Below are positions 5,586 through 23,119 of a DNA stretch of 32,000 nt, piece by piece. The stretch is taken from assembly GCA_016699955.1 (NCBI GenBank), contig CP064993.1:90001-122000 (forward strand). Direction: 5' to 3'. The position numbers and the translations under genes were made by a program. Origin of the DNA: Candidatus Saccharimonadota bacterium. GTDB lineage: Bacteria > Patescibacteriota > Saccharimonadia > Saccharimonadales > UBA4665. Each line of letters begins with the position of its first letter. Within the stretch, counting starts at the first letter, position 1. The notes beneath the pieces are model-generated. The model searched no databases. It saw nothing but the letters and a program-made list of their open reading frames with translations, and was not told where the DNA came from.

Positions 5586-7481
5586 CTAGACCATGGCGGC
5601 TTTGATACGGCGAATGCCAGCGGAGGAGGCTTCTTCTTTAATGATTTTGTAGGTCTTGCCACTAGGATTGCCCTCGTCATCTTGGGCAAGTTGGCCGGTG
5701 TGGTCAACGTGCGGGCCACCGCAGATTTCAAGACTAACGATATGGTCGTCTGTTCCCATTTGATACACCTTCACCGTTTCGCCGTAGCGTTCCCCAAACG
5801 GACCGATAGCACCCATGTCGAGTGCTTGCAGCGTCGGGTATTCGGTAAATTTCACTGGGTGGTCTTCGGCAATCCACTGGTTTACAAGGTCTTCTGCCTG
5901 TTTAATTTCTTCAGGAGTCATTTTGCGGTCAAGGTTGAAATCAAACCGCAGGCGCTCCTCGGTGATATTGCTACCGTGCTGACGTAACTCTGACCCAAAA
6001 ATTTCACGCAGTGCAGACTGTAACAGGTGGGTACCCGTGTGATACCGCCTATGCTGCATGGTGTGGCCGCCCAAGCCGCCTTTAAAAGTTCCCTTTGCCG
6101 CTGTTTGGCTGCGCGCTCGTTGCTCGGCCATTTTGGTTTCAAATTCTTTTTGCCAAGTGGCGCTCAAATTAAACCCACGAACCCCCGCCTCTTCTGTGCT
6201 TAGCTCGGTCGGAAAACCAAATGTATCATACAAAGTAAAAATGTTTTCACCGGTGAGCCCGTTTTCAGCCATGCGTTCGAGCTGCTGCAGTCCTTTGCGC
6301 AGTGTCTGCCGAAATACTTTTTCCTCCTTGGCCAGAACCGCAATGACGGTTTCGCGGTTGTCTTTGACTTCAGGGAAATCGGCTTCGTAAATGTCGGCGA
6401 TAACCGGCACAACTGCCTCAAGGAAATTCTGCTCAATGCCCAAATCAAACGCATAGCGAATGGCGCGACGCACCAGGCGGCGCATGACGTAGCCCTGCTC
6501 CTTATTGCTCGGTGTGACGCCGTCAACAGCTAGAAACGAGGCGGCCCGAAGATGATCGGCAATCACCCGCATACTTTCGGTGTGACTATCGTACTTTTTG
6601 CCACTGATAGCCTCAAGCTTCTCAATGATTGGCCAAATAACACTTATCTTAAACATGTCTGGCGAGTTCAGCTGTGCGGCAGCAATCCGCTCTAGGCCTG
6701 CGCCAAAGTCGACGTTTTGAGCCGGTAGCTTTTCAAAACCCTTTTCGGTGCGGACATATTCCATGAACACGCTATTGCCGATTTCCATAAACCGGCCGCA
6801 ATCGCAGTTCGGATGACAGTGCTCACCCCATTTCGGGTCATGAGTGATGAAACTGAACTCATAAAAAACTTCACTGTCTGGCCCACCTGGCTCACCGGCA
6901 GGCATGTCGCCAATCTTACCGGCTCGGCACCACCAGTTTTTGCTTGCGTCGTAGAAAAAGATTCGTCCGCCTTGCATACCTTTGGCCGAGCCATCGGCTT
7001 CAGAACCTATTTCGACTGTTTTGGCTTCAATGCCTTGTGACGCAAATAGTTTCTGCCAGATTTCGGCAGACTCAGTGTCACGCGGAATACCCTGCGTGTT
7101 ATCGCCAATGAAGGCCGTTACATATAACTTTTTGGGGTCAAGCCCCACAAAATCAGTGAGAAATTCCCAAAACCATGGCAGTTGCTCAGCTTTAAAATAG
7201 TCGCCAAGCGACCAATTCCCGAGCATCTCAAAAAATGTCGTGTGGCGATTGTTGCCGACTTCTTCAATGTCCTGTGCGCGTAAGCACGTCTGACTGTCGA
7301 CCAACCTCACGCCTTTTGGGTGTTTTTCTCCTAGCAAATACGGCAAAAGCGGCTGCATGCCGCTACCAGTAAAAAGCGTGGTCGGATCGTTGTCTGGCAC
7401 CAGCCGCGCCCTCGGTATTACCTCGTGGCTACGGTCGGCAAAGAATTTCAGGTACGCATTACGGATATCTTGTGCTGTCAT
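5586..7481 (-). CDS. alaS: Alanine--tRNA ligase, short form (631 aa, no C-Ala domain)
   Basis: ORF 5586..7481(-). The N-terminus MTAQDIRNAYLKFFADRSHEVIPRARLVPDNDPTTLFTGSGMQPLLPYLLG is the canonical AlaRS class II catalytic start. FEMLGNWSLGDYFK is present. The editing-domain Zn motifs HTGTHLLQSAL and CGGPHV are present. The protein ends about 35 aa after CGGPHV. Confidence 0.95.
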   Translation of the reverse strand: MTAQDIRNAYLKFFADRSHEVIPRARLVPDNDPTTLFTGSGMQPLLPYLLGEKHPKGVRLVDSQTCLRAQDIEEVGNNRHTTFFEMLGNWSLGDYFKAEQLPWFWEFLTDFVGLDPKKLYVTAFIGDNTQGIPRDTESAEIWQKLFASQGIEAKTVEIGSEADGSAKGMQGGRIFFYDASKNWWCRAGKIGDMPAGEPGGPDSEVFYEFSFITHDPKWGEHCHPNCDCGRFMEIGNSVFMEYVRTEKGFEKLPAQNVDFGAGLERIAAAQLNSPDMFKISVIWPIIEKLEAISGKKYDSHTESMRVIADHLRAASFLAVDGVTPSNKEQGYVMRRLVRRAIRYAFDLGIEQNFLEAVVPVIADIYEADFPEVKDNRETVIAVLAKEEKVFRQTLRKGLQQLERMAENGLTGENIFTLYDTFGFPTELSTEEAGVRGFNLSATWQKEFETKMAEQRARSQTAAKGTFKGGLGGHTMQHRRYHTGTHLLQSALREIFGSELRQHGSNITEERLRFDFNLDRKMTPEEIKQAEDLVNQWIAEDHPVKFTEYPTLQALDMGAIGPFGERYGETVKVYQMGTDDHIVSLEICGGPHVDHTGQLAQDDEGNPSGKTYKIIKEEASSAGIRRIKAAMV

Positions 7482-7519
7482 TCGCCTAGTATAACAGATA
7501 GCTTGCTAGCGGTGGGGTG

Positions 7520-8914
7520 TTATGGTGACAGTTCCAAAAAGGCTCTACCGACTGTATCGCAGACAGCCGCATATGCACGGTTTTTTTTATCGTCTGGGGG
7601 CGCCTGTTCAAATGTAGAATTTGTGAGCAAAACCGCCCACATATCCGTTTCTGGATCAACCATCATTATAACCCCGTTATGGCCAGTATGGCCAAACGTC
7701 TGCGGACTCATGATGCTTGAATATGACCGGTTGGCATTCGTTCTAAACCCGAGTGCATAGCTTTTTTTGTCTGTCGAAGCTGTAGTAAGCGCGGCGACAG
7801 AAGGAGCGTTCAATAAAACTTGTCCTTTATACGTCCCTCTATTGGCAAGCATAGCGGCGAACTTCCCTGCATCTTCGGCTGTACTAAAAACCCCAGCGTG
7901 CCCTGAAGCACCACCGAGCCCCCGCGCCAAACTGTCTTGCTGAACGCAGTTTAATTCTTCTTTCTGGTTGTAGTCCGAAGATGTTGGGGCGCAGTCCGCC
8001 TGAGGATGGTAAGTACTATTTTTCATACCTAGCGGTTGGAAAATATTCTGTGTGATAACCCCTTCCAGCGAACCCCCGACTGCCTTGCCTCCGACCGCCC
8101 ATGCGACAGAAAAACCCACATTCGAATAGGCATAGGTCTTGCCGGGTGTTTCTTTTAGTGGCTGGGATAAAACTTTCTTTTGTACGGCTTGAGGGTTAGG
8201 GCTTGAACCAATGATACTAGCGTACCTTACATCTTTAAGACCCGCTCGGTGACCAAGCAATTGCCGCATAGTCACCGTTGCTTTATTGCCGACGCCGTAC
8301 TCGGGAATAAACCGACCGACTGGATCATCCAATTGCAATTTTCCGGCCTCGACCGCTCTCACGATGGCCGCTGCAGTAAACGGCTTACTGAGTGACGATA
8401 GGTCGTATTTTGTCACCCCCGGGTCAATTGGTTTGCCACCCTCATAGCGTGTGCTTCCGAAACCAACTGACACAATTTGGTTTTCACCGCAGCCCGCCAC
8501 CACGGCAGCACCCGGAGCAAGCCGTGGATCTAGAACAGATGATTTAACAGTTGCTGCTAGGCTATTTCTTAGCTTCTCGGCCGCCTCAGGGTGTTTCAAC
8601 CAACTTCCACAATTTTTTTCCCCTGTACCACCTGTTGCTTGCGCAGAATTATTTTCAGGGGTATTCGGCTGTGGCATTAACGGGGCACTTGATTCAGGCG
8701 TATCCGTGAGTGTAGCACCAACAATTCCTAGCACCAGTTTGCCGCTGGCAGAAAGCTCCTGCCAAGAGCGCTTTTCCATGCCAACAGTAAAATACGGCGC
8801 TTCATCAATTCCATGCACATTGCCACTATGTTGGTTGACATCATACGCGCCGTGAGCACCCACTGCAATAGCCGCCCCCAAAGCTGTAACTGCGCCTATT
8901 CTTAAAATACTCAT
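7520..8914 (-). CDS. Secreted beta-lactamase-fold serine hydrolase (class C beta-lactamase / DD-peptidase-like)
   Basis: ORF 7520..8914(-), 464 aa. It has a signal-like N-terminus (MSILRIGAVTALGAAIAVGAHGAY). The motifs are SxxK (LSSLSKPFTAAAIV), YxN (YAYSNVGF) and HTG in place of KTG (FGHTGHNG). Confidence 0.85.
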   Translation of the reverse strand: MSILRIGAVTALGAAIAVGAHGAYDVNQHSGNVHGIDEAPYFTVGMEKRSWQELSASGKLVLGIVGATLTDTPESSAPLMPQPNTPENNSAQATGGTGEKNCGSWLKHPEAAEKLRNSLAATVKSSVLDPRLAPGAAVVAGCGENQIVSVGFGSTRYEGGKPIDPGVTKYDLSSLSKPFTAAAIVRAVEAGKLQLDDPVGRFIPEYGVGNKATVTMRQLLGHRAGLKDVRYASIIGSSPNPQAVQKKVLSQPLKETPGKTYAYSNVGFSVAWAVGGKAVGGSLEGVITQNIFQPLGMKNSTYHPQADCAPTSSDYNQKEELNCVQQDSLARGLGGASGHAGVFSTAEDAGKFAAMLANRGTYKGQVLLNAPSVAALTTASTDKKSYALGFRTNANRSYSSIMSPQTFGHTGHNGVIMMVDPETDMWAVLLTNSTFEQAPPDDKKNRAYAAVCDTVGRAFLELSP

Positions 8915-9304: not shown

Positions 9305-10237
9305 ATGAGTTTTGAACATTCACGTACAGTGACAGTTGCATTATCTGCAGCACTCTTTATTAGCAGTTGCTCATGGAACAATGTTGACAGTTATCAGCAG
9401 CCGAACCCTGGCGGTGGCGTATCTGCTGGGCAAAAGCCTTCTCCGCAACAGTATCGAGCCGATAGTGGACGCCCCTGGATACTCCTCGACCCAGGGCATA
9501 GCGGAAATTACCGGCAGAAAGATGAACTTACCGGCCTCCCCAGTCCGACCCCTCCCAAAATAGATGCAATTACCGGCCTACCAGATATTCAGTACCGTCC
9601 GGACACACCCGAAATAGATGATGTATTTGACGTAGCCACGCTCTTACGCAGTATGCTCGAAGCAAATGGCTATAAAGTTTGTATGACCAAAAAAACTGCG
9701 AATGATTATGTTTCACACCGTGAACGTGCAAACCTTGCTAACGGTACCGACCCCAAACAAGAGTGCGGATCAAACGGCGCCGCTCTCGCAGTCAGTATCC
9801 ATACTGACCCAACGGCCCCAAAAAGCCGCGCTACGATGTCGCCTCAGTTTGTGGGTGGCTCCCGCGGAGGTGTTGACGGTTACCTATGCAAGAATAAAAA
9901 TCAGTGCAGTGCAACATACCCACGAGTAACTTTTGAAGATGCAACGCTTGCAATGCAGAGTCTGACTGCCACGCAAATCATTGCCGAGGAACGGACAAAA
10001 GCTGAAGGCCGTCTAGTCGTAGTCGAGAATCTTAATTTTAATGGCCGCTTACCTTTGCCACCAGGAAATCTCTCTCTCGTACAACTCTACAGCAACAAGC
10101 CATGGACTTACGCCGAGTATGGCGCAAATGTCAACGGCAGTACGCGCGTGCCTCTGACAGCCACAGAGAAACAAAATTACGCAGCCGGCCTCGCAAACGG
10201 TATATTTCGCACTGTGCGTATCTCGGCTGGTCATTAG
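9305..10237 (+). CDS. N-acetylmuramoyl-L-alanine amidase (Amidase_3 family) lipoprotein
   Basis: ORF 9305..10237(+), 310 aa. It has a lipobox-like signal (ALSAALFISSC). The Amidase_3 Zn-ligand context is present: ILLDPGHSGN and AALAVSIHTD. So is the intervening pattern (DVATLLRSMLEANGYKVCMTKKT...SHRERANLAN). AAGGA lies 11 nt upstream of the ATG. Confidence 0.7.
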   Translation: MSFEHSRTVTVALSAALFISSCSWNNVDSYQQPNPGGGVSAGQKPSPQQYRADSGRPWILLDPGHSGNYRQKDELTGLPSPTPPKIDAITGLPDIQYRPDTPEIDDVFDVATLLRSMLEANGYKVCMTKKTANDYVSHRERANLANGTDPKQECGSNGAALAVSIHTDPTAPKSRATMSPQFVGGSRGGVDGYLCKNKNQCSATYPRVTFEDATLAMQSLTATQIIAEERTKAEGRLVVVENLNFNGRLPLPPGNLSLVQLYSNKPWTYAEYGANVNGSTRVPLTATEKQNYAAGLANGIFRTVRISAGH

Positions 10238-10373: not shown

Positions 10374-11804
10374 TTAGTTTTGGTCTTCGTCTTCAACAAG
10401 CTCAGCATCAACAGTACCGCCTGTGTCTACAAGATGACCAACCCCGAGCTTAGGTGGCTCGTCATTTTGAATTTCACAGCTTGCAGCGGCCACCAACATA
10501 CCCAACGCTTGCGGATTGGAAAGAAAATTTACTGCCTTATGTAAACCTTCGTTTGCGTACACGGGTACGTAAGGATTCCCTGGAACTCGCACTTCACCGT
10601 CTGGCCCTGCACCTACACCATCAAATCCGCTGTGTGCAGTAATGAGCCTCGTTAAAATCCTGGGATTATGGAGTGTAACAACTTCTTTAACTTCCCACCA
10701 ACCCTTATGCCAATCAACCGGAGACCCAGTTTGTCCGTCGACTGTTACCGCCTGACTGCCAGCAGCTTGGTTTAGACCCGGGACGACAACAACTTCATAG
10801 CTAAGTTTCGGATCTTCACTGTCTTGAATACAAAGGTGCAATTCGACAGGAACCTCCGCTATCGTACCGTCTGCCCTTTGAATTTGTCCCACTTTCGCGA
10901 TGCGCGAATTCAACAGACCAGTGTTAGTTGCCTCTAATTCAAATACATCCACGAGTTTAGCGGCATCGACGTACATACTGCCGTTCGCAGACCAGAAATG
11001 CACTTTTAACCCTTCCTGGCCAGTAGCAATTACGTAGTTGCGGCTAACGCTTGTCATTGCACGCTGTGCGGCGTCCAGAAGAGGTGTATCACCAAAGACA
11101 CGCTCTCTGGCCGCTGCTATTGACTTCACCTTCATTTTTTCTAGTGCATTATTACTTTGAGCGGCCTCGTGATTTGGACGCAAGCCACTTCTTTTGCCCC
11201 AATATCTTGGAGGTTCTACGGTGTCGCCAGAAAGCCCATCAAATGCTGATGTAGCGCTTAAGCCAACCTCCTGCCATATAACACTGGCGACAGGTCCCTG
11301 CGCAATGCTTGGCGACAACCACTCCTGTTGCGCTGATCTGATTGCTTCGATTCCCGCTTGACGACGGACATCACCGAGAAGTAATGGAGTAACTTCTGTT
11401 ACACCTAGTTCTGCGAGCAAAGCTGCCTCACGTTCTTGGAAAAGACTTGGCCTGACCGGCTTACCACTACCGCCATCATTGGAGATTCTGGCCAGTGCAG
11501 TACCGGGAGTGGCAGAGCCTGACTGAAATCCTGCTCTTAAATTAGCCATTGTACCGAGCTTTTCACCAATCCGGTACAGTAAAGGTGGTTCGGTAACTCT
11601 GCCAGTTAAACTAACCTCAGTGCTTGTTGGGGGTTTGCCGGTAGCGGCAGGGTCTTGAGCGGCACCTCCATCAGAAAGGGAGGTCGGCGGCGCTACCGGC
11701 CTTTGAGGCATAGGAATTCCGACGCTTGTAAGGCCAGTACCTGGCGGAGCAACTTCTGGAATACCCCCAGCCGGTGGACGTCCGCCCCAACTAAAATCTC
11801 TCAT
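10374..11804 (-). CDS. Hypothetical protein (476 aa), proline-rich N-terminus, acidic C-terminal tail, no signal peptide or TM
   Basis: ORF 10374..11804(-). It has protein-like composition and no competing ORF of similar length. The N-terminal ~70 aa are P/G/T-rich. The C-terminus is ...DAELVEDEDQN. I recognise no catalytic or binding motif. Confidence 0.7.
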   Translation of the reverse strand: MRDFSWGGRPPAGGIPEVAPPGTGLTSVGIPMPQRPVAPPTSLSDGGAAQDPAATGKPPTSTEVSLTGRVTEPPLLYRIGEKLGTMANLRAGFQSGSATPGTALARISNDGGSGKPVRPSLFQEREAALLAELGVTEVTPLLLGDVRRQAGIEAIRSAQQEWLSPSIAQGPVASVIWQEVGLSATSAFDGLSGDTVEPPRYWGKRSGLRPNHEAAQSNNALEKMKVKSIAAARERVFGDTPLLDAAQRAMTSVSRNYVIATGQEGLKVHFWSANGSMYVDAAKLVDVFELEATNTGLLNSRIAKVGQIQRADGTIAEVPVELHLCIQDSEDPKLSYEVVVVPGLNQAAGSQAVTVDGQTGSPVDWHKGWWEVKEVVTLHNPRILTRLITAHSGFDGVGAGPDGEVRVPGNPYVPVYANEGLHKAVNFLSNPQALGMLVAAASCEIQNDEPPKLGVGHLVDTGGTVDAELVEDEDQN

Positions 11805-12014
11805 AGTGTCTGTAACCCCCTGCCCAATTAGTAAATGAATGAAGGTAGCTAATCATATGCTAGTGTTTGTGTCAAATAGATTTTTTTGTGCACTGGTTCG
11901 GATTGAAACTAGCAAAATGGCAAAAAATGGTTTCAAATCACTTACATTTTACAGCATATAGTCAACTTACGCGAACTGCCTGTCAACGCCTTGTCATATG
12001 GAATAACCTTCTTT

Positions 12015-12028
12015 CCACTGCCGGTTAG
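12015..12028 (+). repeat. Direct repeat copy 1: CCACTGCCGGT-TAG
   Basis: The exact 11-mer CCACTGCCGGT at 12015-12025 recurs at 12136-12146. Confidence 0.6.
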
Positions 12029-12135
12029 AAAATGATTTTTAAAAATACACTTGCATTTCATAAAAAAAAGTAGGAAACTAATTTTCATAGCCTGCGCGGT
12101 TGGGCGGCGTACTCTTTTTTTTCTAAGAGAGACAA

Positions 12136-12148
12136 CCACTGCCGGTAG
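12136..12148 (+). repeat. Direct repeat copy 2: CCACTGCCGGTAG
   Basis: The exact 11-mer is shared with 12015-12025. This copy lies ~110 nt upstream of the 12259 start. Confidence 0.6.
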
Positions 12149-12258
12149 CTATCATGTACCCGTGCTGGCTTGCTGCAGCACTGTTAGTGAGTACTTGCGC
12201 CGGTGTTTAGGCAAGTCACTAGAAAGTCGTTAGACGGTTTGCAGACAATTAATTAACA

Positions 12259-14325
12259 ATGGTTTTTAAAAAGGGTATACACAATATGGGTATAGGTCGA
12301 AAGAAAGAAACGCCTCCATCTCCGTTAGGAGCAGAGTCACTAATGACTCAGGCAGATTTTGGCGATGTTTTAAACCAGCCCATGCCAATTAGCACACTTG
12401 TAGATACGTATGGATACCCGGGCGGAAGCGTACTAGGCTATGTGCCCGCAAGCCCACATAAGGAAGTAGCTCATTTTTTGCCCGATAGCTCGTTGGCACT
12501 TGTGCTAAAATCTCCCAATAAATTGTTGGAAAACGCTGTCAGCGGTCGTATTGCAGATATACTCCTACCTTCCCCAGGTTCGAACCCAAGCTCTCCGCTT
12601 CGCAGACGAACCGAAATACTTGTCAGCAGTCAATGGGGTCCGGGGAGGCTATATTCCGCTGCACAAGAGCTCATCAATCAGGACCGTCAAACACGAAATC
12701 CTTATAAGGATTTTACGGGAGCATATGCAGTGTTTATGGAAACGGATCCAGCCATAAAACCACACCCCTTGGCAGACGGCGAGCTTTACCATGACAAAGG
12801 TGATCTGCAGCTTGTCGGCACAATGACTACTGGTGATGCGTTCCCTTCTGACACATTTTTTGACACGAGAGCTATCTTTTCAGGAAATGAGTCGGGTTGG
12901 CCGGAATATGGTTTTGTAAACCAAGTACTCGAAAACTCGCAGGAGGCAAGAGATTATACTGATAGGTTCGGAGGAGAGCGCCAATTTAGGACTCTCGTTG
13001 ACGGTTTAATCACATTTGGTGGCAATTTGTATGCACAACTAGGGGCTATTGCAGAAAAAAATGCAAAAAATAACAAGAAACGCGATGTCGACCTAGACGA
13101 TTTAATGAAAACCGCGCTAAAGGGGACACCCAGAGGAACGGAGGAACTGCTCAAGGAATTTCTGGCAAACAACGGTAACAATCCGTTCATGCTCCGCGTC
13201 CTCAGCCGAGCTTGGCAGGCGAAAACAGATGCTGAAAATGATTATGATGAAATCCCATTTGGGTTCTTCGGTGGTGCAAAGAAATTGCATTATCAAGCAG
13301 CCGTCGAACAGCGGATAAATGGTATTCGAGCTGAGGTTGTCGAGGCTTTACTGCATGGAAGCTGGGTAAACAAGCTGGGGAAAGTTGTTTTAGCCACAAG
13401 AGCATTGCCCCCTCCAACTCGGCTAAGAGTTGAACTATACGACCATTTTGATGTTTCATTTGCCCAGTTACTTCGCCAGATAAATGTGGGTCAATTTGCC
13501 GCAAGCGCACAATTAGCGGCGAGTAATATGAATGCGCCCAACATATCTGACAGCGGCATTTTGGTAGTCCGGTCATTAGATAGCGCTTACCCTATTTTCA
13601 GCTATGGCTCTCCAACAAATGATGAACAATTTCAAGAAATAAGCAGCTTTCAATACGACGGCAAGGGCGGCATGATTGTGGACAATCCCAATGGTAGTTA
13701 TCCAAGAGAACTGTCCCGTTCAATATTTGACAGAACGACTGGGCACGTTGCAATGCAGGGTATTGTGTCGGTGTCTGACAGCGCGCTTAGACTTCGTAAT
13801 GCATTACTTTACCCGCGCAGAAAAGTCGTGATCGATCTTATGGAGGCTCCTGCCAAAATATTGGAGGCACTAATGGACGCCGGGCACCTCGGGGAAGGCG
13901 CGCGCAAAATTCCTGAAAAAGATACACTATTCCTTAGCGAGATCCTTAGTCGAAAACGTGAAACCGACATCATCGTGGCGTCAATGCTAGGATCCTCGGC
14001 TGTAGTGCATGCGGTCATTAGAGAAGGTGGCGGAATGCAATGGGTTAGCGTTCCCCAAACATCGACTGGTGCGCCAGGAATAATTACAGACACTACTAAA
14101 GTTGCTCGGCTCAGAGGAGAACAAGCAGGTAGACCCGGTCAATCCGGCGACTATGTCATGCAGAGTACTCGGCGTCGGGGGTGGGGAGAAAGGGGCGGCA
14201 CGCACATCGCAGGAGTTGCGTTGAAAGACGGCGTGCCTTTACTGTCAAATAGTATTTATCCAGATGTTAGTACTTGGGTCATGCCTCATTCAAGTTTACT
14301 ATTTGATGGTAGGAGGAAAAGATAA
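12259..14325 (+). CDS. Hypothetical protein (688 aa), soluble, no recognisable domain
   Basis: ORF 12259..14325(+). It is a long uninterrupted frame with ordinary globular composition and no TM or signal. The start is uncertain: ATG 12259 has no SD, while ATG 12344 has AGGAG 11 nt upstream. Its stop overlaps the next gene's start (TAATG at 14323-14327). Confidence 0.7.
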   Translation: MVFKKGIHNMGIGRKKETPPSPLGAESLMTQADFGDVLNQPMPISTLVDTYGYPGGSVLGYVPASPHKEVAHFLPDSSLALVLKSPNKLLENAVSGRIADILLPSPGSNPSSPLRRRTEILVSSQWGPGRLYSAAQELINQDRQTRNPYKDFTGAYAVFMETDPAIKPHPLADGELYHDKGDLQLVGTMTTGDAFPSDTFFDTRAIFSGNESGWPEYGFVNQVLENSQEARDYTDRFGGERQFRTLVDGLITFGGNLYAQLGAIAEKNAKNNKKRDVDLDDLMKTALKGTPRGTEELLKEFLANNGNNPFMLRVLSRAWQAKTDAENDYDEIPFGFFGGAKKLHYQAAVEQRINGIRAEVVEALLHGSWVNKLGKVVLATRALPPPTRLRVELYDHFDVSFAQLLRQINVGQFAASAQLAASNMNAPNISDSGILVVRSLDSAYPIFSYGSPTNDEQFQEISSFQYDGKGGMIVDNPNGSYPRELSRSIFDRTTGHVAMQGIVSVSDSALRLRNALLYPRRKVVIDLMEAPAKILEALMDAGHLGEGARKIPEKDTLFLSEILSRKRETDIIVASMLGSSAVVHAVIREGGGMQWVSVPQTSTGAPGIITDTTKVARLRGEQAGRPGQSGDYVMQSTRRRGWGERGGTHIAGVALKDGVPLLSNSIYPDVSTWVMPHSSLLFDGRRKR

Positions 14326-15479
14326 TGTCGGAATTTGGTGGCATAGCCGTACCAATAGGCGAAGACACTAAACGACCACTGCCGAACGTGAGTAGTGGCT
14401 TAGACGAACCGGAACATCAGCCAGCGACACCCTTAGAAGCACGGACAATTATAATGCCGGTGGGTAGCGATACAGAGGGGCAAGTACTAGCAGTACAAAT
14501 CACATCACTTGGTGTAGATAGCTCAGTTGTCATTGAGAATATAAATGAGCTTCCACCTTACTTTACCCTAGGATCTCGTGGTGAAGTCTCTGACGATGGA
14601 AGTAAACTCGGTGTTGGGCCTGTATTTAACCACCCAGCTCGCTTACCAGACACCATTCCCCAAGCAACAGATCCAGAGACATTAGTTGGATTGTTGCAAA
14701 GAGGTACATTATTACCAGCCGATTTGGGTAAACTAACACCGGTTGAGGGTGTTTCTGCAGCAGACCTGCTGAAAGGCTTGACACAAGCAGAGCGGGAAGC
14801 CAATAACAACGGGCAACCACCCCTCAAAGTTGCTGACTTACTTGAATCGGTTAGCGGGGCAGTATTTTTCTCGACAGATGCTCCTGGTCATGGTCGTGGT
14901 AATACACTACTCGGCGGGGCTCGACCAGGTGGCACCATTGTCGCTCTCAGCCTCACTCCGGAAGGCGCAGTGCAAGTTGAAAAAATACATCCCCTGGATG
15001 ACGGAGGTACCATTCGATATATTGGATCTGTCGCTATTCAAAAAAAAACCGATCAAGCTGGAGAGGGTACGACAGTCATTATATCAGGCCCTGGTGTCAT
15101 ATTAGATAAACGGTTTCCTGAGGGAGTGCATCATTTAGACGTTCATACCGGTTTACCTCCGGGTATTACCAACTTAACGCCTAAGACTCAGCTGCCGCCC
15201 GTAACACTGGATCTCGACACAGTCAACAAAGGCCGGAGAGCGCTCGGCTTACCCCTAGTAGCTACACCTAAAGTTAACCTGGCCTCTCTGACAAGTTTAC
15301 CCCCGCAACCACAAAACGGACATGCTCAAAACAATGGTTCTATTGGTAACCCACCATTATCTGGAGGAGAGGGTACTGAGTCTGGATCTGCTGACAAAGT
15401 TACACAAGCGGGTAGCGCAGAAGAAGTGCCGCTATTTGATGCTCCAGAAAGAAGACCGTTGTGGCCAACTCGGAGGTAA
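14325..15479 (+). CDS. Hypothetical protein (384 aa), P/G/T-rich termini, no recognisable domain
   Basis: ORF 14325..15479(+). A strong SD (AGGAGG, 14311-14316) lies 8 nt before the ATG, which overlaps the upstream stop. This suggests translational coupling. There is no TM or signal. Confidence 0.75.
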   Translation: MSEFGGIAVPIGEDTKRPLPNVSSGLDEPEHQPATPLEARTIIMPVGSDTEGQVLAVQITSLGVDSSVVIENINELPPYFTLGSRGEVSDDGSKLGVGPVFNHPARLPDTIPQATDPETLVGLLQRGTLLPADLGKLTPVEGVSAADLLKGLTQAEREANNNGQPPLKVADLLESVSGAVFFSTDAPGHGRGNTLLGGARPGGTIVALSLTPEGAVQVEKIHPLDDGGTIRYIGSVAIQKKTDQAGEGTTVIISGPGVILDKRFPEGVHHLDVHTGLPPGITNLTPKTQLPPVTLDLDTVNKGRRALGLPLVATPKVNLASLTSLPPQPQNGHAQNNGSIGNPPLSGGEGTESGSADKVTQAGSAEEVPLFDAPERRPLWPTRR

Positions 15480-15543
15480 CTAACGATATGACGTCTTAAA
15501 GCAAGTAAACCGTAATGAATAAGCAATTACAAAGGGAGCAGCT

Positions 15544-16383
15544 ATGCGAGGAAGTAAAAGAATAACATCATACGCAGGGGAAGGAGTTGAAGTGCCCGGG
15601 TTTAGGGACCCGAAGACAACAGGCGATAGTACTACGCACTTTACTGATGGCGGGAAGCTGGGCATTGAGACCCGATGTACTCCTGAGGCTTTCCGCAAAG
15701 CGTACCCTATACCAACCGTTCTTGGCTTTATGCTCAGAAAAGTGCACTGGGTTCCGCGTGCCATAATTAGCCCGGAGCATTTACATGTTGACGATGAATA
15801 TAACGCTAAGCTCAAGAGTGTTGCTGTTGATCGTGCGCATAAACGAGGTAAGCTGGGAAACGTACTAGATCCTTTTAGCCATGGTAAGGTTGTACGGAAA
15901 GAGTCACACGGCCTTGAATACCAGCGCCTTAGGGCAGCCCGTATTGGGCTGGTTGGCCTAGCAGCCACAGCGTTGTTGACCGTCGCGACTGATAACGTAC
16001 CCTTTATAGAAAGGCAGAGTGGCTCCATCGAAGCCATCGATACCTCTCCAAGGGCTGGCAGCTCAATCTTAGACGGTGGAGTAATCGCTGGAACGGGACA
16101 GGAAAAGGCTAATGCAAAAATCTCCTTTTTAGGCGGAGCAATTGTCTGCAATAGTCTGATCCCTTTCAAGCTGTCGCCGGATAATGTCGCAGCCCCAGCC
16201 AACCTGATTGCTGCAATGTCGATCGTAAGTGGCGAAGCCTTTACATCCTTACCGGCTGCTGATCAGACTAGACTTCTGAGCGAGGCAATCGCCAATAAAG
16301 AAGTCAACCCAACCCAAGCAAAACCACCGACCGCAACGAGCCCGTTTTATAGCCCAAGCACCTGCACGGGCAAAGGTCTTTAG
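15544..16383 (+). CDS. Hypothetical protein (279 aa) with one central TM helix
   Basis: ORF 15544..16383(+). GGGAG lies 5 nt upstream of the ATG. The gene is co-directional with the two preceding genes. The TM segment is IGLVGLAATALLTVAT. I prefer it over the antisense ORF 15480..16202(-), whose product is S/C/P/L-rich and has no SD. Confidence 0.6.
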   Translation: MRGSKRITSYAGEGVEVPGFRDPKTTGDSTTHFTDGGKLGIETRCTPEAFRKAYPIPTVLGFMLRKVHWVPRAIISPEHLHVDDEYNAKLKSVAVDRAHKRGKLGNVLDPFSHGKVVRKESHGLEYQRLRAARIGLVGLAATALLTVATDNVPFIERQSGSIEAIDTSPRAGSSILDGGVIAGTGQEKANAKISFLGGAIVCNSLIPFKLSPDNVAAPANLIAAMSIVSGEAFTSLPAADQTRLLSEAIANKEVNPTQAKPPTATSPFYSPSTCTGKGL

Positions 16384-16514
16384 CAAAAACTACACGGCGG
16401 AGCCACACACGCAGGAACACCCAGCCATCATGCTAAGGTGGGCAGTATTTGAGTCGAGTACATAACCCGAACTCGGCCCCTACGCCGAGTTCTAAAGGCA
16501 GGCTCGTCCCCCAA

Positions 16515-16545
16515 AAAAACAACTGAAATAAATCCAGTTGTTTTT
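16515..16545. terminator. Possible bidirectional intrinsic terminator hairpin
   Basis: AAAAACAACTG-aaataaatc-CAGTTGTTTTT forms an 11-bp perfect stem. On the minus strand the stem is followed by TTTTTTT, and on the plus strand the 3' arm ends in TTTTT. It lies 130 nt past the stop of 15544..16383. Confidence 0.4.
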
Positions 16546-16619
16546 AGCTCCCCAACCCTGCACGCATTTAGCACTTTAAAGATCCTGTGCATTTTCCGAA
16601 GCACTGAAGGAACCGTACT

Positions 16620-16638
16620 TAACCTGAGTTCGACATAA
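16620..16638 (+). repeat. Dispersed 19-mer, copy 2 (TAACCTGAGTTCGACATAA)
   Basis: It matches copy 1 at 16/19 positions. It matches the reverse complement of 16772-16790 at 17/19. The flank ACCGTA also recurs, giving a ~30-bp imperfect inverted repeat (16609-16638 vs 16772-16800). Confidence 0.6.
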
Positions 16639-16771
16639 CAGTCGACCTCAGTAGGGTCGGGCTCGCCCGCCCCACTCTTTGTTCGGAATAAATCCGAACA
16701 AAGAGCTGCCCACCCCTAAAGGCGCTGCTGACGCAGCGCTTCTTGCGACGAGCGAGAGGATGCACAGGTTT

Positions 16772-16790
16772 TTATGTCGAACTGGGGTTA
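16772..16790 (-). repeat. Dispersed 19-mer, copy 3 (reverse complement reads TAACCCCAGTTCGACATAA)
   Basis: This is the inverted partner of 16620-16638. The two copies bracket 133 bp. Confidence 0.6.
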
Positions 16791-16880
16791 CTTACGGTAC
16801 GGTTAAGTGGTATCGCAACCGCACAGGAAAGAAAAGTCTTGCTTTTTTTAGTAACCGGCCAAAATGTGGTACGTGGTACT

Positions 16881-17549
16881 TTATCGATTACGACCTGGAG
16901 CTGGAGTTACCGGTATCTGACAGGTAGCGCCTTCAGCGATCGAGTTCAGGCCACATACTGACATACTTCCTCCTGTAGGAGCTTTTCCTGTAAGGTAGTC
17001 GAAAGGACGCGCCGTTGTTGGTGCTGGTACCGGTGCTAGCGCTGCAGCCGGACGAGCAGCTGGTTCATAACAGTTTGTTACCTTATCAGTGATTGCCTTG
17101 CCTAATGCTGCAAGGGTAAGGGGACCGATTGCTTCAGGGCTTACTGCGCCACCTTCTTGCAAAACATTGGGATTGGTTGCACCCAAGTTCCTCTTAAATC
17201 TCAGTGAAGATTCGGTAGTTTTTTCAAGGAAATTACCTGCTGGAACCATATCTGCTGGTGTACACCCCACTGATGCGAGCATGCTTTGCGCTGAGAGTAC
17301 GTCCTGGCCAACCATGCCTTTAACCAAAATTCGTGTCGCCGCTGCAACCTCACCCTGTCCTTGGGGAACGGCAGGCGCAGCAGGACCAGTAGCAGCCGCG
17401 GTAGCAATGCCACCCCAGCCCTCTTTTATTGTCCCTTTTTCACTTCCCTTGACACCACATCCTGCTGTTGCTGCTAAGAAAGCCGCTGCAATACCGGTAG
17501 TTACTATTGTCCTTCGGTTGGAAAGAATACCTTCCATACTAATTCTCAT
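16881..17549 (-). CDS. Lipoprotein with putative peptidoglycan-binding (PG_binding_1-like) domain
   Basis: ORF 16881..17549(-), 222 aa. It has a signal plus lipobox (IAAAFLAATAGC). The PG_binding_1 spacing pattern is present: LVKGMVGQDVLSAQSMLASVG...GNFLEKTTESSLRFKRNLG...GAVSPEAIGPLTLAAL. AAGGAGA lies upstream of the ATG. Confidence 0.65.
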   Translation of the reverse strand: MRISMEGILSNRRTIVTTGIAAAFLAATAGCGVKGSEKGTIKEGWGGIATAAATGPAAPAVPQGQGEVAAATRILVKGMVGQDVLSAQSMLASVGCTPADMVPAGNFLEKTTESSLRFKRNLGATNPNVLQEGGAVSPEAIGPLTLAALGKAITDKVTNCYEPAARPAAALAPVPAPTTARPFDYLTGKAPTGGSMSVCGLNSIAEGATCQIPVTPAPGRNR

Positions 17550-17636: not shown

Positions 17637-20276
17637 CTACGAGTCACTGTCAATATTATTAACTCCGGGGTCTTGGTTAACACCTGTAATTTTGGGTACA
17701 CTCGCGGGGTTAGCCACATAGCCTTTTGCGCGGTTTACCACTTCGGTCCAGTACTGAGCAATGGATGGGTACTTACCCCCGCCCTGCCCTCTATTAACAT
17801 CATAGCCTTTGCTTTTCCAACCAGAGCCAGCGTACCAACCCCCAGCAACGTCTTTCCATATAGACTCTTCGTTAGCATCTGGAAACTTGTCGTTTGAAAA
17901 CTTCTTGTAAATATCACCGACTTCCCTTCGCATCTGGTCGTATTGAAATTGCGGTGGAGCATCTCTGGCCGATTTGAATCCGCCCCGCCCGCCCCATGTC
18001 CCTACCATCCAGTTTCCTAAGCCTGCTGCTCCGGAATCTGAGTTGAATGACCGCGGGTTGCCACGGGACTCCTGATAAATGATTGAGTTAACCATGGCCT
18101 CAAGCATCACCTTGTGAGCGGGGGACTTGTTCGTCTCCGCCGGCTTAGATGCGCCCTCAGTAGAAGATGGGGTTGCAGTTTTATCATCATTCAACGGTGT
18201 GATTGTGCCATCTAGTGGAGAGGCGCCTGGTGCTTGAGTAGGGGTTGGAGAAACAACCACGCTAAGCGAGCCCACTCCCGCCAGCGCTGTTTGCCCCATT
18301 TCAAGCGGATTTACTCCAGAGTCGACTTGCTCTGGCTTGTCCACACTATCTGCAACCGGAGTTACTTCGGCTGGCACACCTATGGCCACGGTACCAGGGG
18401 TCAAACCGGCAATAGCCACGCTAGGCTGCTGAGGAGTAAGTAGGCTAAGGGGGTTGCGCGTCGCGGGATTAAATACTGGCTGTGGGGAGGTAGAAGCTTG
18501 TTGTGGCGGTGTAGGTGCCTTCTGTTTTGGCTGGTCTGCCTGTTGTGGGGATACGCCTACGAAGCGCATCCCTACATATGTCAGATCATCGCCCTCCCAC
18601 TTATGAAATGTTTCCTTAAAACGATCTGAGAGATTGCCGTCAAACGACCAGTAGCCTTTACCGTTTGGATCAAATCGAGAGAAACGCCCAACGTGATTAT
18701 CGCCATCATGTCCAGTTTTTTTACTCACTCGATAAAACAGGTAATCACCATATACAATTATGTCGTTCAGCTTTCCATTCCGAAAATCCGCAGCAGTATA
18801 TAGCTTAGAACCCGGTTCATTTTCTATGGCCAGCATCATCTCATATGCACCCACGATTCTTCCACTCGACCATGCGGCTTTAGGCCGATTTGTTGTAAGA
18901 ACATAACCGGCATCTGTGTCTATTTGCCAGGCCGCTCCGGCGCACCACGGCCAGTCACGACCTTCCCTGCCTTCCATAAAAAGTTTTGCTGGCAGACCAT
19001 CATTATTACCGGTTTTTTCCCTAATATTCATTTGGAGGTATGCTTCGGCTTTAATCTCAACAGCCTTTGAATAAGCTTTTCGAGATGGTGTTAATACCGA
19101 TACAGTTTCCGCTGGCTGTAGTGTCGGGGCAGTTGGCGCTTCCGACTGGGATTGATCCAGTGGATTTGGGGCTACCCCAAGTGGTGTAATTACGGTCGCG
19201 AGTGGTGCGGGGGTACCAGGTGCATCTACAATATAATCATCTACGCGTTTGATTCCTGAGAAAAGTGTCGTGGACAAATCTCTTGTGAGTGGGTTGGTTG
19301 CTCCACCCATCCGATCCAGTGGTGTAATTTCGACAGCTGGGACAAGCGCACTCAGCGGTTGTGTCGGCAGTTGTTGGCTGACATTATAAGTCCCTACGAG
19401 CGGTTGACTACCCTGGAGGTCAGGTGTAGTGCCGGGTGCCGAAGCCACAGTGCCACTGGGAAATTGAGCAATCCGAGACAATGCTTCGAACGGTGAAACA
19501 GTAAGCAGTTGTTGAGGTGTGGGGCTACTCACTATTTGGGGCGCAATTGTGACGCTTGCGACAGGTACAGTACGAGGATTTGCTACTTCTGCTGCGTTTA
19601 TACCTAGTCTGGGGCTGGGCTGGGGACTGGCTACTTGAACTGGGGTACCCTGGGACAGCAAGGCAGTTGTTTCGGTTCGGGCTCCTGGGGTGTCTGAAAC
19701 GACGGTAGCTGGGCGTAAGTCGGGTATACCTGCCCAACCTGTGGTAATGCGCCGACTGTCCGGCGTCATGGTCGCTCCAGCAACAATTGCTGTCTGATTC
19801 AGGCTTGTCTCCCCAACCGGCACTACGGTTGCAGGTGTACCCGTGGTCGCAAGTCGACCGAGCGGAGCAGTTGGTGATAATACATTTGTCCGAGACTCGG
19901 TGGATGTTGAACCTATTCCTGCAGCTAAACTTGGTAAACCCTGACCCGTCATTCTCTGGACGATACTTTCAGGAAGAACAATCTTCGGCGGTGCTTCTAG
20001 GATAGTGGGCTCAGTAGAAATACCCCCGATTTGACCGGGTACTAGGGCGGCCCCAACAATCGGGTTCGTAGGCAGTATGCCACCGGACTGTGGCTGCCAG
20101 TTTGCTATCAGTGCCAAGTCGCTCCCACCGGCACCCGACTGTACGGCAAGAGAGAGAAGAACGCCAGCTCCTGCTGCTCTAACAGACCCTGGGGGCATAT
20201 GAGTATCGGCCGTCAAACGCGCAGGCGGTGCGAGCTGCGCGATGTGCCTTGCTAAACTATTGGGGTCATAATACAT
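17637..20276 (-). CDS. Large two-domain peptidoglycan hydrolase: ~400-aa P/T/S/Q-rich region + CHAP-like cysteine amidase/peptidase + C-terminal SLT-type lytic transglycosylase
   Basis: ORF 17637..20276(-), 879 aa. GGAGAAACTC lies before the ATG. The CHAP-like core has DWPWCAGAAWQI (Cys ~445, codon 18942-18944). It continues DIIVYGDYLFYRVSK...DNHVGRFSRF...WSFDGN (His ~528, codon 18693-18695). The SLT motif is IIYQESRGNPRSFNSDSGAAGLGNWM (Glu ~736, codon 18069-18071). Confidence 0.85.
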   Translation of the reverse strand: MYYDPNSLARHIAQLAPPARLTADTHMPPGSVRAAGAGVLLSLAVQSGAGGSDLALIANWQPQSGGILPTNPIVGAALVPGQIGGISTEPTILEAPPKIVLPESIVQRMTGQGLPSLAAGIGSTSTESRTNVLSPTAPLGRLATTGTPATVVPVGETSLNQTAIVAGATMTPDSRRITTGWAGIPDLRPATVVSDTPGARTETTALLSQGTPVQVASPQPSPRLGINAAEVANPRTVPVASVTIAPQIVSSPTPQQLLTVSPFEALSRIAQFPSGTVASAPGTTPDLQGSQPLVGTYNVSQQLPTQPLSALVPAVEITPLDRMGGATNPLTRDLSTTLFSGIKRVDDYIVDAPGTPAPLATVITPLGVAPNPLDQSQSEAPTAPTLQPAETVSVLTPSRKAYSKAVEIKAEAYLQMNIREKTGNNDGLPAKLFMEGREGRDWPWCAGAAWQIDTDAGYVLTTNRPKAAWSSGRIVGAYEMMLAIENEPGSKLYTAADFRNGKLNDIIVYGDYLFYRVSKKTGHDGDNHVGRFSRFDPNGKGYWSFDGNLSDRFKETFHKWEGDDLTYVGMRFVGVSPQQADQPKQKAPTPPQQASTSPQPVFNPATRNPLSLLTPQQPSVAIAGLTPGTVAIGVPAEVTPVADSVDKPEQVDSGVNPLEMGQTALAGVGSLSVVVSPTPTQAPGASPLDGTITPLNDDKTATPSSTEGASKPAETNKSPAHKVMLEAMVNSIIYQESRGNPRSFNSDSGAAGLGNWMVGTWGGRGGFKSARDAPPQFQYDQMRREVGDIYKKFSNDKFPDANEESIWKDVAGGWYAGSGWKSKGYDVNRGQGGGKYPSIAQYWTEVVNRAKGYVANPASVPKITGVNQDPGVNNIDSDS

Positions 20277-20312: not shown

Positions 20313-21173
20313 TTACTGTGCCTCCGTCAGTTGGCATGTAACTATGTGAGGGGTTGCAACAAGCTGTTTAGTGGCTGGGTCGGTCGATTGAACCATAAGA
20401 CCGACATATACATTCGGAACATTCGGACTATCTGGTTTCATTGTGTAGGGCGCAATTGCGTAAGCATTTTCAGCTGTCAAAAGATCTTTGGCCGGTATGT
20501 CGGTACTATCACGAAGAAGCCACCCGGCATGGACCTGAGCCTTTTGCACAACGGCTGCCATGTCATCCCTGCACATCTGTGCCGTCTCTAGTGCACGTTT
20601 TTTTTCTGCCTCACTTGCACCTTTTTTTACCACCGTCATTGAGGCAACAATATCCCCAAGGGTTAGTTTATTGACTTGTTCTGGCGTGACTGGTTTGGCT
20701 AGTCCTGCCTTATCAGTATAAGTAGCGCCGTACGCGTCCGTAAAACCTTCGACACTATATGTAAATGTGGGGAACACGACAATATGCCCGTCTTTCCCCC
20801 GAGCAATTTTTCCGGCGTTCACCGCATAACTACCAAGTACTTGACTATTCGCGCCTTCCCGGCGAAGCGATGCGGGGATTTCACGTGGCTTGGTCTGTAA
20901 TGGTGCGGCCATCCAGCCAGTTGCGCACCAGCCCGAGTCACTTTTTATACAGTAGCTGTTTATGTGACCTAAAAAATCGCTACCCAAATCTCTACCCATA
21001 TAGCCGGCGACACCAAGAACAGTGCCTAAGCCAGCGGCAATCACCTTGCGCCTTGTGATAAACCGATTGCCGGAGCCGCCCAGCACGTAAATCACCGATG
21101 GAGTTCCGCTGCCATAGCCGTTACCATTAGCTGGCAACAGATCGCTCATGTTAAACTTTTTGCCTTTAGCCAT
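20313..21173 (-). CDS. Hypothetical membrane-anchored protein (~286 aa)
   Basis: ORF 20313..21185(-). I place the start at ATG 21173 (MAKGKKF), which has GGAG 7 nt upstream. The track's start at 21185 is a TTG. There is one N-proximal TM helix (VIAAGLGTVLGVAGYM). I recognise no family for the remainder. Confidence 0.7.
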   Translation of the reverse strand: MAKGKKFNMSDLLPANGNGYGSGTPSVIYVLGGSGNRFITRRKVIAAGLGTVLGVAGYMGRDLGSDFLGHINSYCIKSDSGWCATGWMAAPLQTKPREIPASLRREGANSQVLGSYAVNAGKIARGKDGHIVVFPTFTYSVEGFTDAYGATYTDKAGLAKPVTPEQVNKLTLGDIVASMTVVKKGASEAEKKRALETAQMCRDDMAAVVQKAQVHAGWLLRDSTDIPAKDLLTAENAYAIAPYTMKPDSPNVPNVYVGLMVQSTDPATKQLVATPHIVTCQLTEAQ

Positions 21174-21211
21174 CACATACTCCAAACAGATCTATTCTAA
21201 ACTTCATCTTG

Positions 21212-22306: not shown

Positions 22307-22361
22307 AATTGACCTACGCTTGATTTATAAACTTGTAATAGTTGTGTGTGTAACATATCGC

Positions 22362-23030: not shown

Positions 23031-23119
23031 AGTAATGTTATATACCAAATTAGAATAATAGTAAACTCTTGTGTAATATATTATTTACAACAGCTGCCTA
23101 ACTCTGCTAAATATTTCTG

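Follow-up and report, generated by a model that had tools for sequence, protein, structure and literature searches.

Four rare, previously undescribed protein families form a conserved module beside cell-wall hydrolase genes in Saccharimonadales-like bacteria

Introduction

Attachment to other bacteria is the way of life of Patescibacteria such as Saccharibacteria, and to our knowledge little is understood of how they breach or remodel the two cell walls where the partners meet. Here we analyze a stretch of 32,000 nucleotides from a Candidatus (Ca.) Saccharimonadota bacterium (assembly GCA_016699955.1, contig CP064993.1, positions 90,001 to 122,000; hereafter the window, in whose own numbering all positions are given) and in it four adjacent genes, A476, B688, C384, and D279. 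These genes lie among cell-wall enzymes and had been picked out, in a sequence-only reading, as an orphan cluster and a candidate uncharacterized system.

Several described systems resemble this locus in part. The FtsEX-EnvC/PcsB/RipC/CwlO systems share with it a layout in which cytoplasmic and membrane parts are encoded beside an M23/CHAP/SLT-type extracytoplasmic hydrolase, the presumed target. RodZ-like bitopic adaptors have the topology of D279 and its homologues (a cytoplasmic N-terminal domain, one transmembrane (TM) segment, and a small ectodomain) and a similar wall-gene neighborhood. Gram-positive and Patescibacterial type IV secretion systems (T4SSs) of the mating-pair formation (MPF) class FATA, exemplified by PrgK, TraG of pIP501, and CwlT, likewise combine a large M23/SLT hydrolase with small membrane-anchored proteins and non-Sec cytoplasmic proteins, and the predicted topology of D279 and three neighbors (G290, H364, and I228) is the one expected of T4SS VirB8-like (NTF2-fold) bitopic proteins. 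A VirB4-family ATPase is the hallmark of all T4SSs, whose parts normally lie within ~20 coding sequences of virB4 (PMC12102498), and Saccharibacteria depend on an atypical T4SS that has VirB4, VirB6, and PrgI (PMC12102498, PMC10633639); the described Saccharibacterial cluster also holds T4SS pilins, and of the expected parts only the coupling protein and the relaxase are missing.

Results

A476, B688, C384, and D279 (A-D) are genuine, constrained genes that have stayed intact over deep divergence. Their open reading frames (ORFs), the divergent spacer, and the overlapping stop and start codons behind a Shine-Dalgarno (SD) sequence are all present as first read:

10374-11804, - strand: A476, ORF of 476 aa
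11805-12258, no strand: A/B divergent control region, 454 bp
12259-14325, + strand: B688, ORF of 688 aa
14311-14327, + strand: AGGAGG SD sequence (14311-14316, within the end of B and 8 nt ahead of the ATG) and TAATG stop/start (14323-14327), a B-C translational coupling signal
14325-15479, + strand: C384, ORF of 384 aa
15544-16383, + strand: D279, ORF of 279 aa

Under a per-codon log-odds model trained on the conserved genes of the window, A-D score +0.11 to +0.16 in the annotated frame and negative in the other five. At the composition of the window, stop codons fall at ~5% of random codons, from which we judge that open frames of 279-688 codons far exceed chance. GC content is flat over the region, and no paralogy was found among the unknown proteins of the window. 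A check for pseudogenization in relatives found all homologues of A-D to be intact ORFs. A 240-aa antisense ORF (15480-16202, - strand), fully within D279, has noncoding codon statistics and is a shadow ORF that should not be annotated.

B688 probably starts at 12286, which gives a protein of 679 aa: the gene call in the protein database begins at Met10 (12286), AAGGG lies ~12 nt upstream of that position, and no SD sequence precedes 12259. Because the start at 12286 has the better ribosome-binding context, the A/B spacer may be 481 bp long. Within this spacer CCACTGCCGGT occurs as two exact copies (12015-12025 and 12136-12146, 121 bp apart), with no other exact copy in the window; at one mismatch or fewer the window holds four matches vs. 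0.61 expected. The two copies may represent a candidate operator pair. The motif was looked for in the A/B spacers of relatives and not seen, and a sigma-70 consensus scan of the spacer gave no match.

By every library searched, A-D appear to lie outside known kinds of protein family and architecture. None of the four matches Pfam, NCBIfam, PHROGs, or PADLOC, even at E <= 0.1-1, and PADLOC-DB v2 gave 0 families at E <= 1 for A-D together with six neighbors. A phmmer search of A-D against all PDB sequences returned nothing meaningful, searches of PDB sequences with A-, B-, and D-family profiles came back empty, and scans of each family member against Pfam, PHROGs, and NCBIfam showed no recurrent match (the B family gave only single-member noise in PHROGs). 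Neither a Walker A nor an HExxH motif is present in A-D. Translated searches (tblastn) with A, B, and C against 50,697 phage records and with B against 72,556 plasmids found nothing, and no relatives were found in IMG/VR contigs. The sequence-only reading had reported no recognizable motif, no signal peptides, and a single TM helix in the product of the last gene; these points are borne out, and neither the profile searches nor the structural search of B688 (below) led to a housekeeping family or fold.

Exhaustive scanning shows that B688 belongs to a very small but real family. Word-indexed searches with B688 and A476 (over 5.8 billion proteins) and with the B-family alignment returned only proteins of the window itself and would have wrongly suggested singletons; an exhaustive HMMER/phmmer scan with B688, covering 1.84 billion cluster representatives, recovered 10 relatives (581-728 aa, 23-33% identity, E 4e-51 to 2e-4). 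With B688 included, the family amounts to 11 clusters at 50% identity, and the 90% clusters of the relatives are tiny (1-5 members each). Scans of metagenome contigs with a three-sequence alignment and with P0018 alone gave no confirmed further locus. The term "orphan" therefore holds insofar as these are very rare, fast-diverging families, and fails insofar as they are not singletons. The family aligns over its full length with six invariant columns (G129, P170, D248, A402, G501, and L527) and 11 near-invariant ones, the latter being Asp, Arg, and Glu, and with a VM[PR]xE motif close to the C-terminal end. A single relative is named, the "hypothetical protein" WAW63_00165 (MFZ2512855.1) of a Ca. 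Saccharimonadales metagenome-assembled genome (GCA_049299135.1), which shares 31% identity with B688 (E 4e-59).

The predicted structure of B688 has no significant match in the structure libraries searched. An AlphaFold2 (AF2) model built from the 11-sequence alignment has a mean predicted local distance difference test score (pLDDT) of 62.5 and a predicted template-modeling score (pTM) of 0.70; residues ~130-430 mostly reach pLDDT 70-96, and residues 1-78 and 589-688 are of low confidence. The model shows an alpha/beta N-terminal region, three long helices (240-271, 309-331, and 339-380), and a mixed C-terminal region. Foldseek found no match at E <= 0.001 either in 350,542 PDB chains (best E 0.17, template-modeling score <0.2) or in BFVD (best E 0.04). 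Two candidates were rejected as noise: proteasome-beta/Anbu subunits (E 0.2-0.9, template-modeling score <= 0.15) and a Cry toxin (E 0.43).

A-D form a fixed module in which A diverges from B-C-D. The common layout is seen in nine relatives by retrieved DNA and in a tenth by its gene table: upstream of B every relative's contig, as far as it reaches, carries a divergent gene, and immediately downstream of B, on the same strand, come two genes, of 346-400 aa and 187-318 aa in that order. Defined as a B-family gene, a usually overlapping C-sized gene of 346-400 aa, an N-in bitopic D, and a divergent A, the module is found in the window and at the loci of 10 relatives as far as their contigs extend, with C absent in one of them (L092). 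Thus A-D are located together in every related lineage with enough contig, in agreement with a check of gene neighborhood across relatives that the sequence-only reading had proposed. Overlap between B and C, of 1-11 nt, is kept in 7/10 loci that carry C, the remaining three having a gap of 11-20 nt, and translational coupling is therefore conserved, as the TAATG overlap in the window had first suggested. As sampled, the four families occur only in a limited set of environmental, Saccharimonadales-like bacteria, and the contigs of the distant relatives are placed taxonomically by weak best-hit evidence only.

In the window and its closest relative, the module is one part of a longer run of wall genes. 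Its neighbors in the window are:

7520-8914, - strand: Beta-lactamase-family (DD-peptidase-like) gene, by Pfam
9305-10237, + strand: Amidase_3 gene, by Pfam
16881-17549, - strand: E222, putative lipoprotein (N-terminal hydrophobic segment and Cys, signal peptide end ...ATAGC)
17637-20276, - strand: F879, large peptidoglycan hydrolase, P/T-rich, whose C-terminal domain is an SLT-type lytic transglycosylase; its gene converges on D
20313-23048, - strand: G290, H364, and I228, with N-terminal hydrophobic segments, membrane-anchored or secreted, no known domain, order kept with F
23120-24061, - strand: polysaccharide (peptidoglycan) deacetylase, Pfam Polysacc_deac_1 at E 5e-31, same position in L081 and L093
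25352-27625, + strand: class A penicillin-binding protein (PBP), Pfam Transgly and Transpeptidase, end of the syntenic block

This setting agrees with the cell-wall context noted earlier, with Beta-lactamase-family and Amidase_3 genes on one side of the cluster and the deacetylase and class A PBP genes further downstream on the other. At the locus of WAW63_00165 (L093, in GCA_049299135.1) the order is Amidase_3, Beta-lactamase family, A (506 aa), B (669 aa), C (400 aa), D (290 aa), a PG_binding_1 lipoprotein, an 871-aa SLT hydrolase, three unknown membrane-anchored proteins, deacetylase, and class A PBP. This run is collinear with 7520-27625 of the window (~20 kb), and WAW63_00165 is a true B688 homologue whose block also encodes homologues of C, D, and F-I and of the PBP, deacetylase, amidase, and Beta-lactamase-family proteins. 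The two loci differ in that the amidase and Beta-lactamase-family genes are swapped and an IS30 element is found in the window only; as the relative is unannotated, the comparison conveys conservation without function. Identity to L093 is 62% for the PBP (first 215 residues only, those available), 42% for the Beta-lactamase-family protein, 37% for I, 34% for F, 33% each for Amidase_3, G, and H, 31% for B, 29% for D, 28% for the deacetylase, and 27% for C, so that it is the whole wall block except the PBP that evolves fast, not A-D alone. The loci L081, L093, L094, and L095, which come from different samples (ENA, NCBI twice, and Logan), show 0-1 nt differences over ~10 kb and are one widely sampled population. 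Gene calls for G give 211 aa in L093, 291 aa in L081, and 281 aa in L095, which is probably a difference of start site or assembly.

The association of the module with M23/SLT hydrolases is conserved. An SLT or M23 hydrolase converges on D in the window, L093, L091, and L092, among which identity of B is 21-31%. F879 and its counterpart F871 in L093 share 34% identity (E 5e-73; 47% in the C-terminal domain); F871 scores above the Pfam SLT cut-off (27.1 vs. 21.3 bits), and F879 itself has a weak PHROG transglycosylase match. In L091 the convergent gene encodes an M23 and a transglycosylase-like domain and is followed by a G homologue (E 5e-6), and in L092 it encodes M23 (E 3e-30); the L092 locus also has a LysM+CHAP gene upstream. 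E222 occupies the position of a PG_binding_1 lipoprotein in relatives (E 3e-8 for PG_binding_1 in the L093 equivalent), although E222 itself stays below threshold (hhalign E 0.03). Genes beside A are also wall-related: Beta-lactamase-family and Amidase_3 homologues adjoin A in L093 and L094 (42% and 33% identity, order swapped), and LytR_cpsA_psr adjoins it in L083 and L089.

Homology beyond B holds for D as well. A homologue of D279 in L093 shares 29% identity over 280 aa (E 8e-17) and another is found in L092 (E 2e-4). D279 consists of a basic 130-aa N-terminal domain, a single TM (hydrophobic) segment at 131-149, and an ectodomain of 130 aa, which carries two conserved Cys and has CTGKGL at its end; the Cys pair and an ectodomain ending in C-T-G-x-G-L recur across the family alignment. 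Net charge is +8 on the N-terminal side of the segment and -2 on the C-terminal side, and 4/5 D homologues show the same pattern with +11 to +16 on the N-terminal side, the exception being D of L093, in which the hydrophobicity scan picked a different segment. These features fit an N-in bitopic membrane protein with its N-terminal domain in the cytoplasm. A476, B688, and C384 have neither a TM segment nor a signal peptide and, as no export signals were found, are predicted to be cytoplasmic.

A and C combine conserved domains with low-complexity ends. In A476 the low-complexity, P/G/T-rich N-terminus (~120-190 aa) is probably disordered and the C-terminal domain is conserved, ending in an acidic motif (VDAELVEDEDQN); a C-terminal peptide [IV][VI]D-x-E-[IL] is common to A476, L093, L089, and L083. 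Aligned by hhalign to a profile of its positional equivalents in L089, L083, and L092, A476 scores a probability of 94.5% (E 8e-8, 389 columns), and it is collinear with A of L093, both carrying the terminal motif VDAE[LI][VL]ED. A single-sequence AF2 model of A476 reached pLDDT 33.5, too low for a fold search. C384 has a homologue in L081/L093 (27% identity, E 1e-9) and positional equivalents of 346-400 aa directly after B in nine further loci; its C-terminal third is of low complexity and ends in a basic Trp motif, RRPLWPTRR, that recurs in L093 and L089. B688 has a low-complexity stretch around residue 591. The sequence-only reading had described such ends in several of these proteins, which is accurate for the N-terminus of A476 and the C-terminus of C384, with the stretch of B688 in addition. 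Short conserved terminal motifs flank low-complexity linkers in A, B, and C.

Compared with the described systems, the locus departs from each in its parts. The module is without the ATP-binding cassette (ABC) ATPase FtsE, four-TM FtsX, or Walker A of FtsEX (no ABC_tran or FtsX match, and D has one TM segment), so the analogy is one of layout only and not of membership. D279 is unlike RodZ in having no helix-turn-helix (HTH), no DUF4115, and no similarity to any Pfam or PDB entry. Identity as a T4SS, which the PrgK-like architecture of the hydrolase had prompted, was rejected since VirB4, VirB6, and PrgI are missing from the window. None of 20 proteins of the 32-kb window, which bounds this search, has a VirB4/DUF87/AAA_10 or P-loop Pfam match; among A-I there is no Walker A motif and no polytopic protein (at most one hydrophobic segment each), with no Pfam match to PrgI or TrbL/VirB6; and VirB3, T4SS pilins, and a coupling protein are likewise missing from the window. 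A VirB1-like hydrolase, of a type discussed in PMC12102498, is present in F879 (homologous to F871 of L093), a feature that is not specific to T4SSs. For type VII secretion systems (T7SS; ESX/Ess), neither the FtsK/SpoIIIE-type EssC/EccC ATPase nor WXG100 substrates have a Pfam match in the window; a W-x-G at residue 6 of A476 is incidental.

Flanking DNA includes further features of the window. The noncoding stretch between the convergent D279 and E222 genes (16384-16880) has strong predicted structure on both strands (fold z -6.8 and -6.5); a 27-nt long-range inverted repeat (16612-16638/16772-16798) surrounds several perfect hairpins, of which two have the loop AATAAATCC in common, and the stretch has no Rfam, tRNA, or tmRNA match. 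A complete IS30-family element (24113-25147; HTH_38 and rve transposase at 24139-25137), bounded by perfect terminal inverted repeats of 13 bp, AAGTAGGACACTA and TAGTGTCCTACTT, sits in the spacer between the deacetylase and PBP genes, which in L093 is 97 bp long without IS30. Further on, a 636-aa protein (29917-31827, - strand) with a PGTSAQ-rich N-terminal half, a sub-threshold Kelch_6 match, and a C-terminal hydrophobic anchor (598-629) has no counterpart in 80 loci of related GTDB genomes anchored on alanyl-tRNA synthetase (AlaRS; L001-L080) or in L081-L088, and is an unassigned surface-type protein.

On the other side, a truncated AlaRS gene (5586-7481) is at most 71% identical to any entry in a one-genome-per-species GTDB set, and its best 25 matches are almost all from Saccharibacteria/Saccharimonadales, which places the window in the class Saccharimonadia; the contig it was taken from is 1.21 Mb long. 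The genes for YceG/MltG, RuvX, a 611-aa protein, an FtsA-like protein, and AlaRS are syntenic with other Saccharibacteria, and this synteny stops right after AlaRS (7481-7520). Among the AlaRS-anchored loci of the 80 related GTDB genomes, nothing from 7520 onward was found within 10 kb, which does not imply absence elsewhere in those genomes. The 611-aa protein (2351-4186, - strand) has no Pfam match, one strong TM segment, and a PGTSAQ-rich middle, and tblastn matches to it adjoin AlaRS in 43/80 related loci; in the same MltG-RuvX context S. epibionticum carries SEML1_0655, for which the supplement of PMC10633639 gives the annotation "baseplate J/gp47 family protein", an equivalence by position only. 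The PBP neighborhood of the cultured S. epibionticum is unrelated, and its transposon-sequencing data are therefore not transferable to A-D.

Discussion

A-D are probably the cytoplasmic (inner) and membrane arm of a larger peptidoglycan-remodeling locus. The earlier idea of a candidate system stands insofar as the evidence supports a dedicated multi-protein module, and needs correction insofar as the four genes are not self-contained, being one arm of a ~20-kb syntenic block; the effector/chaperone/anchor set also suggested there may yet be correct. We tentatively propose, at somewhat less than an even chance, that the B and C proteins associate in the cytoplasm, that their complex docks on the N-in protein D and has A for a partner, and that this assembly controls or positions the neighboring set of wall hydrolases. 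B and C, made by coupled translation, would assemble in the cytoplasm and dock on the basic N-terminal cytoplasmic domain of D, whose Cys-containing ectodomain would contact the wall-side proteins, namely the peptidoglycan-binding lipoprotein E, the M23/SLT hydrolase F, and the membrane-anchored G, H, and I. For its part A, expressed under joint control from the spacer between A and B, would bind this complex by way of its conserved C-terminal domain and the acidic peptide at its end. The assembly would then position or gate wall cleavage from inside the cell, by an FtsEX-type or RodZ/divisome-type logic without a recognizable ATPase, and might act either in wall growth or division of the cell itself or in opening the wall of the host where the cell attaches. 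The B-C overlap, the hydrolase link, the topology of D, the docking-type terminal motifs, and the collinearity of L093 suggest such an arrangement; the physical complex, the direction of control, and the biological role are what we infer from them, the functional links resting on gene neighborhood.

Several observations weigh against this proposal. Because the cluster has no ATPase or other energy source, active control would have no evident motor. Cell-wall genes cluster for many reasons, and adjacency to hydrolases is no proof of functional coupling. Part of the family evidence is also thin at a distance: pairwise, A476 and A of L093 reach E 0.23, which is not significant alone, and C384 compared with the more distant C proteins gives hhalign E 0.2, so that homology is not significant there. 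L092 lacks a C gene altogether, and in L089 the gene after D is transcribed in the same direction and matches no Pfam family. Finally, the B688 model is of moderate quality, with 223 residues at pLDDT <50, and a distant known fold might escape notice.

Export would account for some of the same features. If A, B, and/or C were effectors of a non-Sec export route such as a Patescibacterial T4SS encoded elsewhere, D would act as adaptor or receptor at the membrane, and delivery into the host would pass through a wall opened by the adjacent hydrolases. A, B, and C have no Sec signals yet lie amid exported wall enzymes, and disordered termini with short conserved C-terminal motifs, here the acidic [IV][VI]D-x-E-[IL] of A and the basic Trp tail of C, are a type of feature seen in secretion signals. 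Saccharibacteria moreover carry an essential T4SS whose cargo is not known (PMC10633639). The divergence of these proteins (~27-31% identity vs. 62% for the first 215 residues of the PBP) would fit a host interface, although the amidase, the deacetylase, and G-I diverge equally fast (28-37%) and the rate is therefore not specific to A-C. With orthologues collinear over their full length, no swapped effector domains, and no gene for secretion machinery in the window (VirB4-like ATPase, polytopic VirB6-like protein, or PrgI), we regard this explanation as unlikely. Doubtful to a similar degree is a lineage-specific scaffold or regulator of wall synthesis, a morphogenetic accessory of the divisome or elongasome that acts on the class A PBP and not on the hydrolases, in which B would be a helical scaffold and D a RodZ/GpsB-like adaptor. 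The block does end in a class A PBP gene and includes DD-peptidase-like, amidase, and deacetylase genes, the B688 model has three long helices flanked by alpha/beta regions, D has the topology of bitopic morphogenetic adaptors, and LytR_cpsA_psr lies beside A in two lineages. However, adjacency to the PBP is found in the window and its closest relative only, the constant neighbor in distant loci being the hydrolase, and the PBP of the cultured Saccharibacterium has an unrelated neighborhood. Factors at the core of morphogenesis usually occur throughout a phylum, whereas the B family is extremely rare, at 11 clusters among the 1.84 billion representatives.

Two further explanations fare worse. 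The sequence-only reading had raised a toxin-immunity-type module, and rapid divergence, a narrow, lineage-restricted distribution, and an IS30 element at a distance of 7.7 kb would also suit a polymorphic toxin or an anti-phage defense system; this we consider highly improbable, given 0 PADLOC matches for ten cluster and neighbor proteins, the lack of any toxin domain or toxin, nuclease, or NTPase motif, no small paired ORF of immunity-gene size, full-length collinear orthologues without variable C-terminal toxin cassettes, and a position beside the same wall genes that is stable in the closest relative. Multidomain hydrolases of the M23+SLT type are a usual feature of phage tails and of Gram-positive conjugation systems, and that architecture, the end of synteny with other Saccharibacteria right after AlaRS, and the IS30 within the block could point to a remnant of a prophage, an integrative and conjugative element, or another mobile element, with the hydrolase as tail lysin or VirB1-like enzyme and A-D as element-specific genes. 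Yet codon usage is native and GC flat, A-D match no PHROG, the phage (A, B, and C), plasmid (B), and IMG/VR searches were negative, no integrase, relaxase, terminase, capsid, or VirB4 was found in the window by Pfam, there are no flanking direct repeats or tRNA, and the IS30, bounded by perfect 13-bp inverted repeats of its own, is a discrete insertion that the relative lacks, so that such an origin also has very little to recommend it. A more far-reaching version of a wall-related role, in which A-I including the M23/SLT hydrolase would make up an ATPase-free envelope-spanning apparatus of novel folds with which a small clade of environmental Saccharimonadales opens the host's or its own peptidoglycan at the attachment site, a new cell-cell junction or feeding machine distinct from T4SS, type IV pili (T4P), and T7SS, strikes us as rather improbable.

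Clusters of hypothetical genes are frequent in Patescibacteria, so that one more is less of a surprise. It goes beyond the ordinary case in its conserved architecture, its extreme rarity, its repeated pairing with a hydrolase, and a moderately confident model that has no structural match. What it offers is four concrete, conserved, and unclassifiable families tied to large M23/SLT hydrolases in several divergent lineages. If they merely form a lineage-specific accessory of wall growth, ~6 kb would still leave the "orphan" bin with a neighborhood signature by which further members can be found. If inside-out control of the hydrolases by the proposed B-C-D assembly is true, it would be a new regulation of wall cleavage without an ABC-type motor and a candidate apparatus of the host interface.

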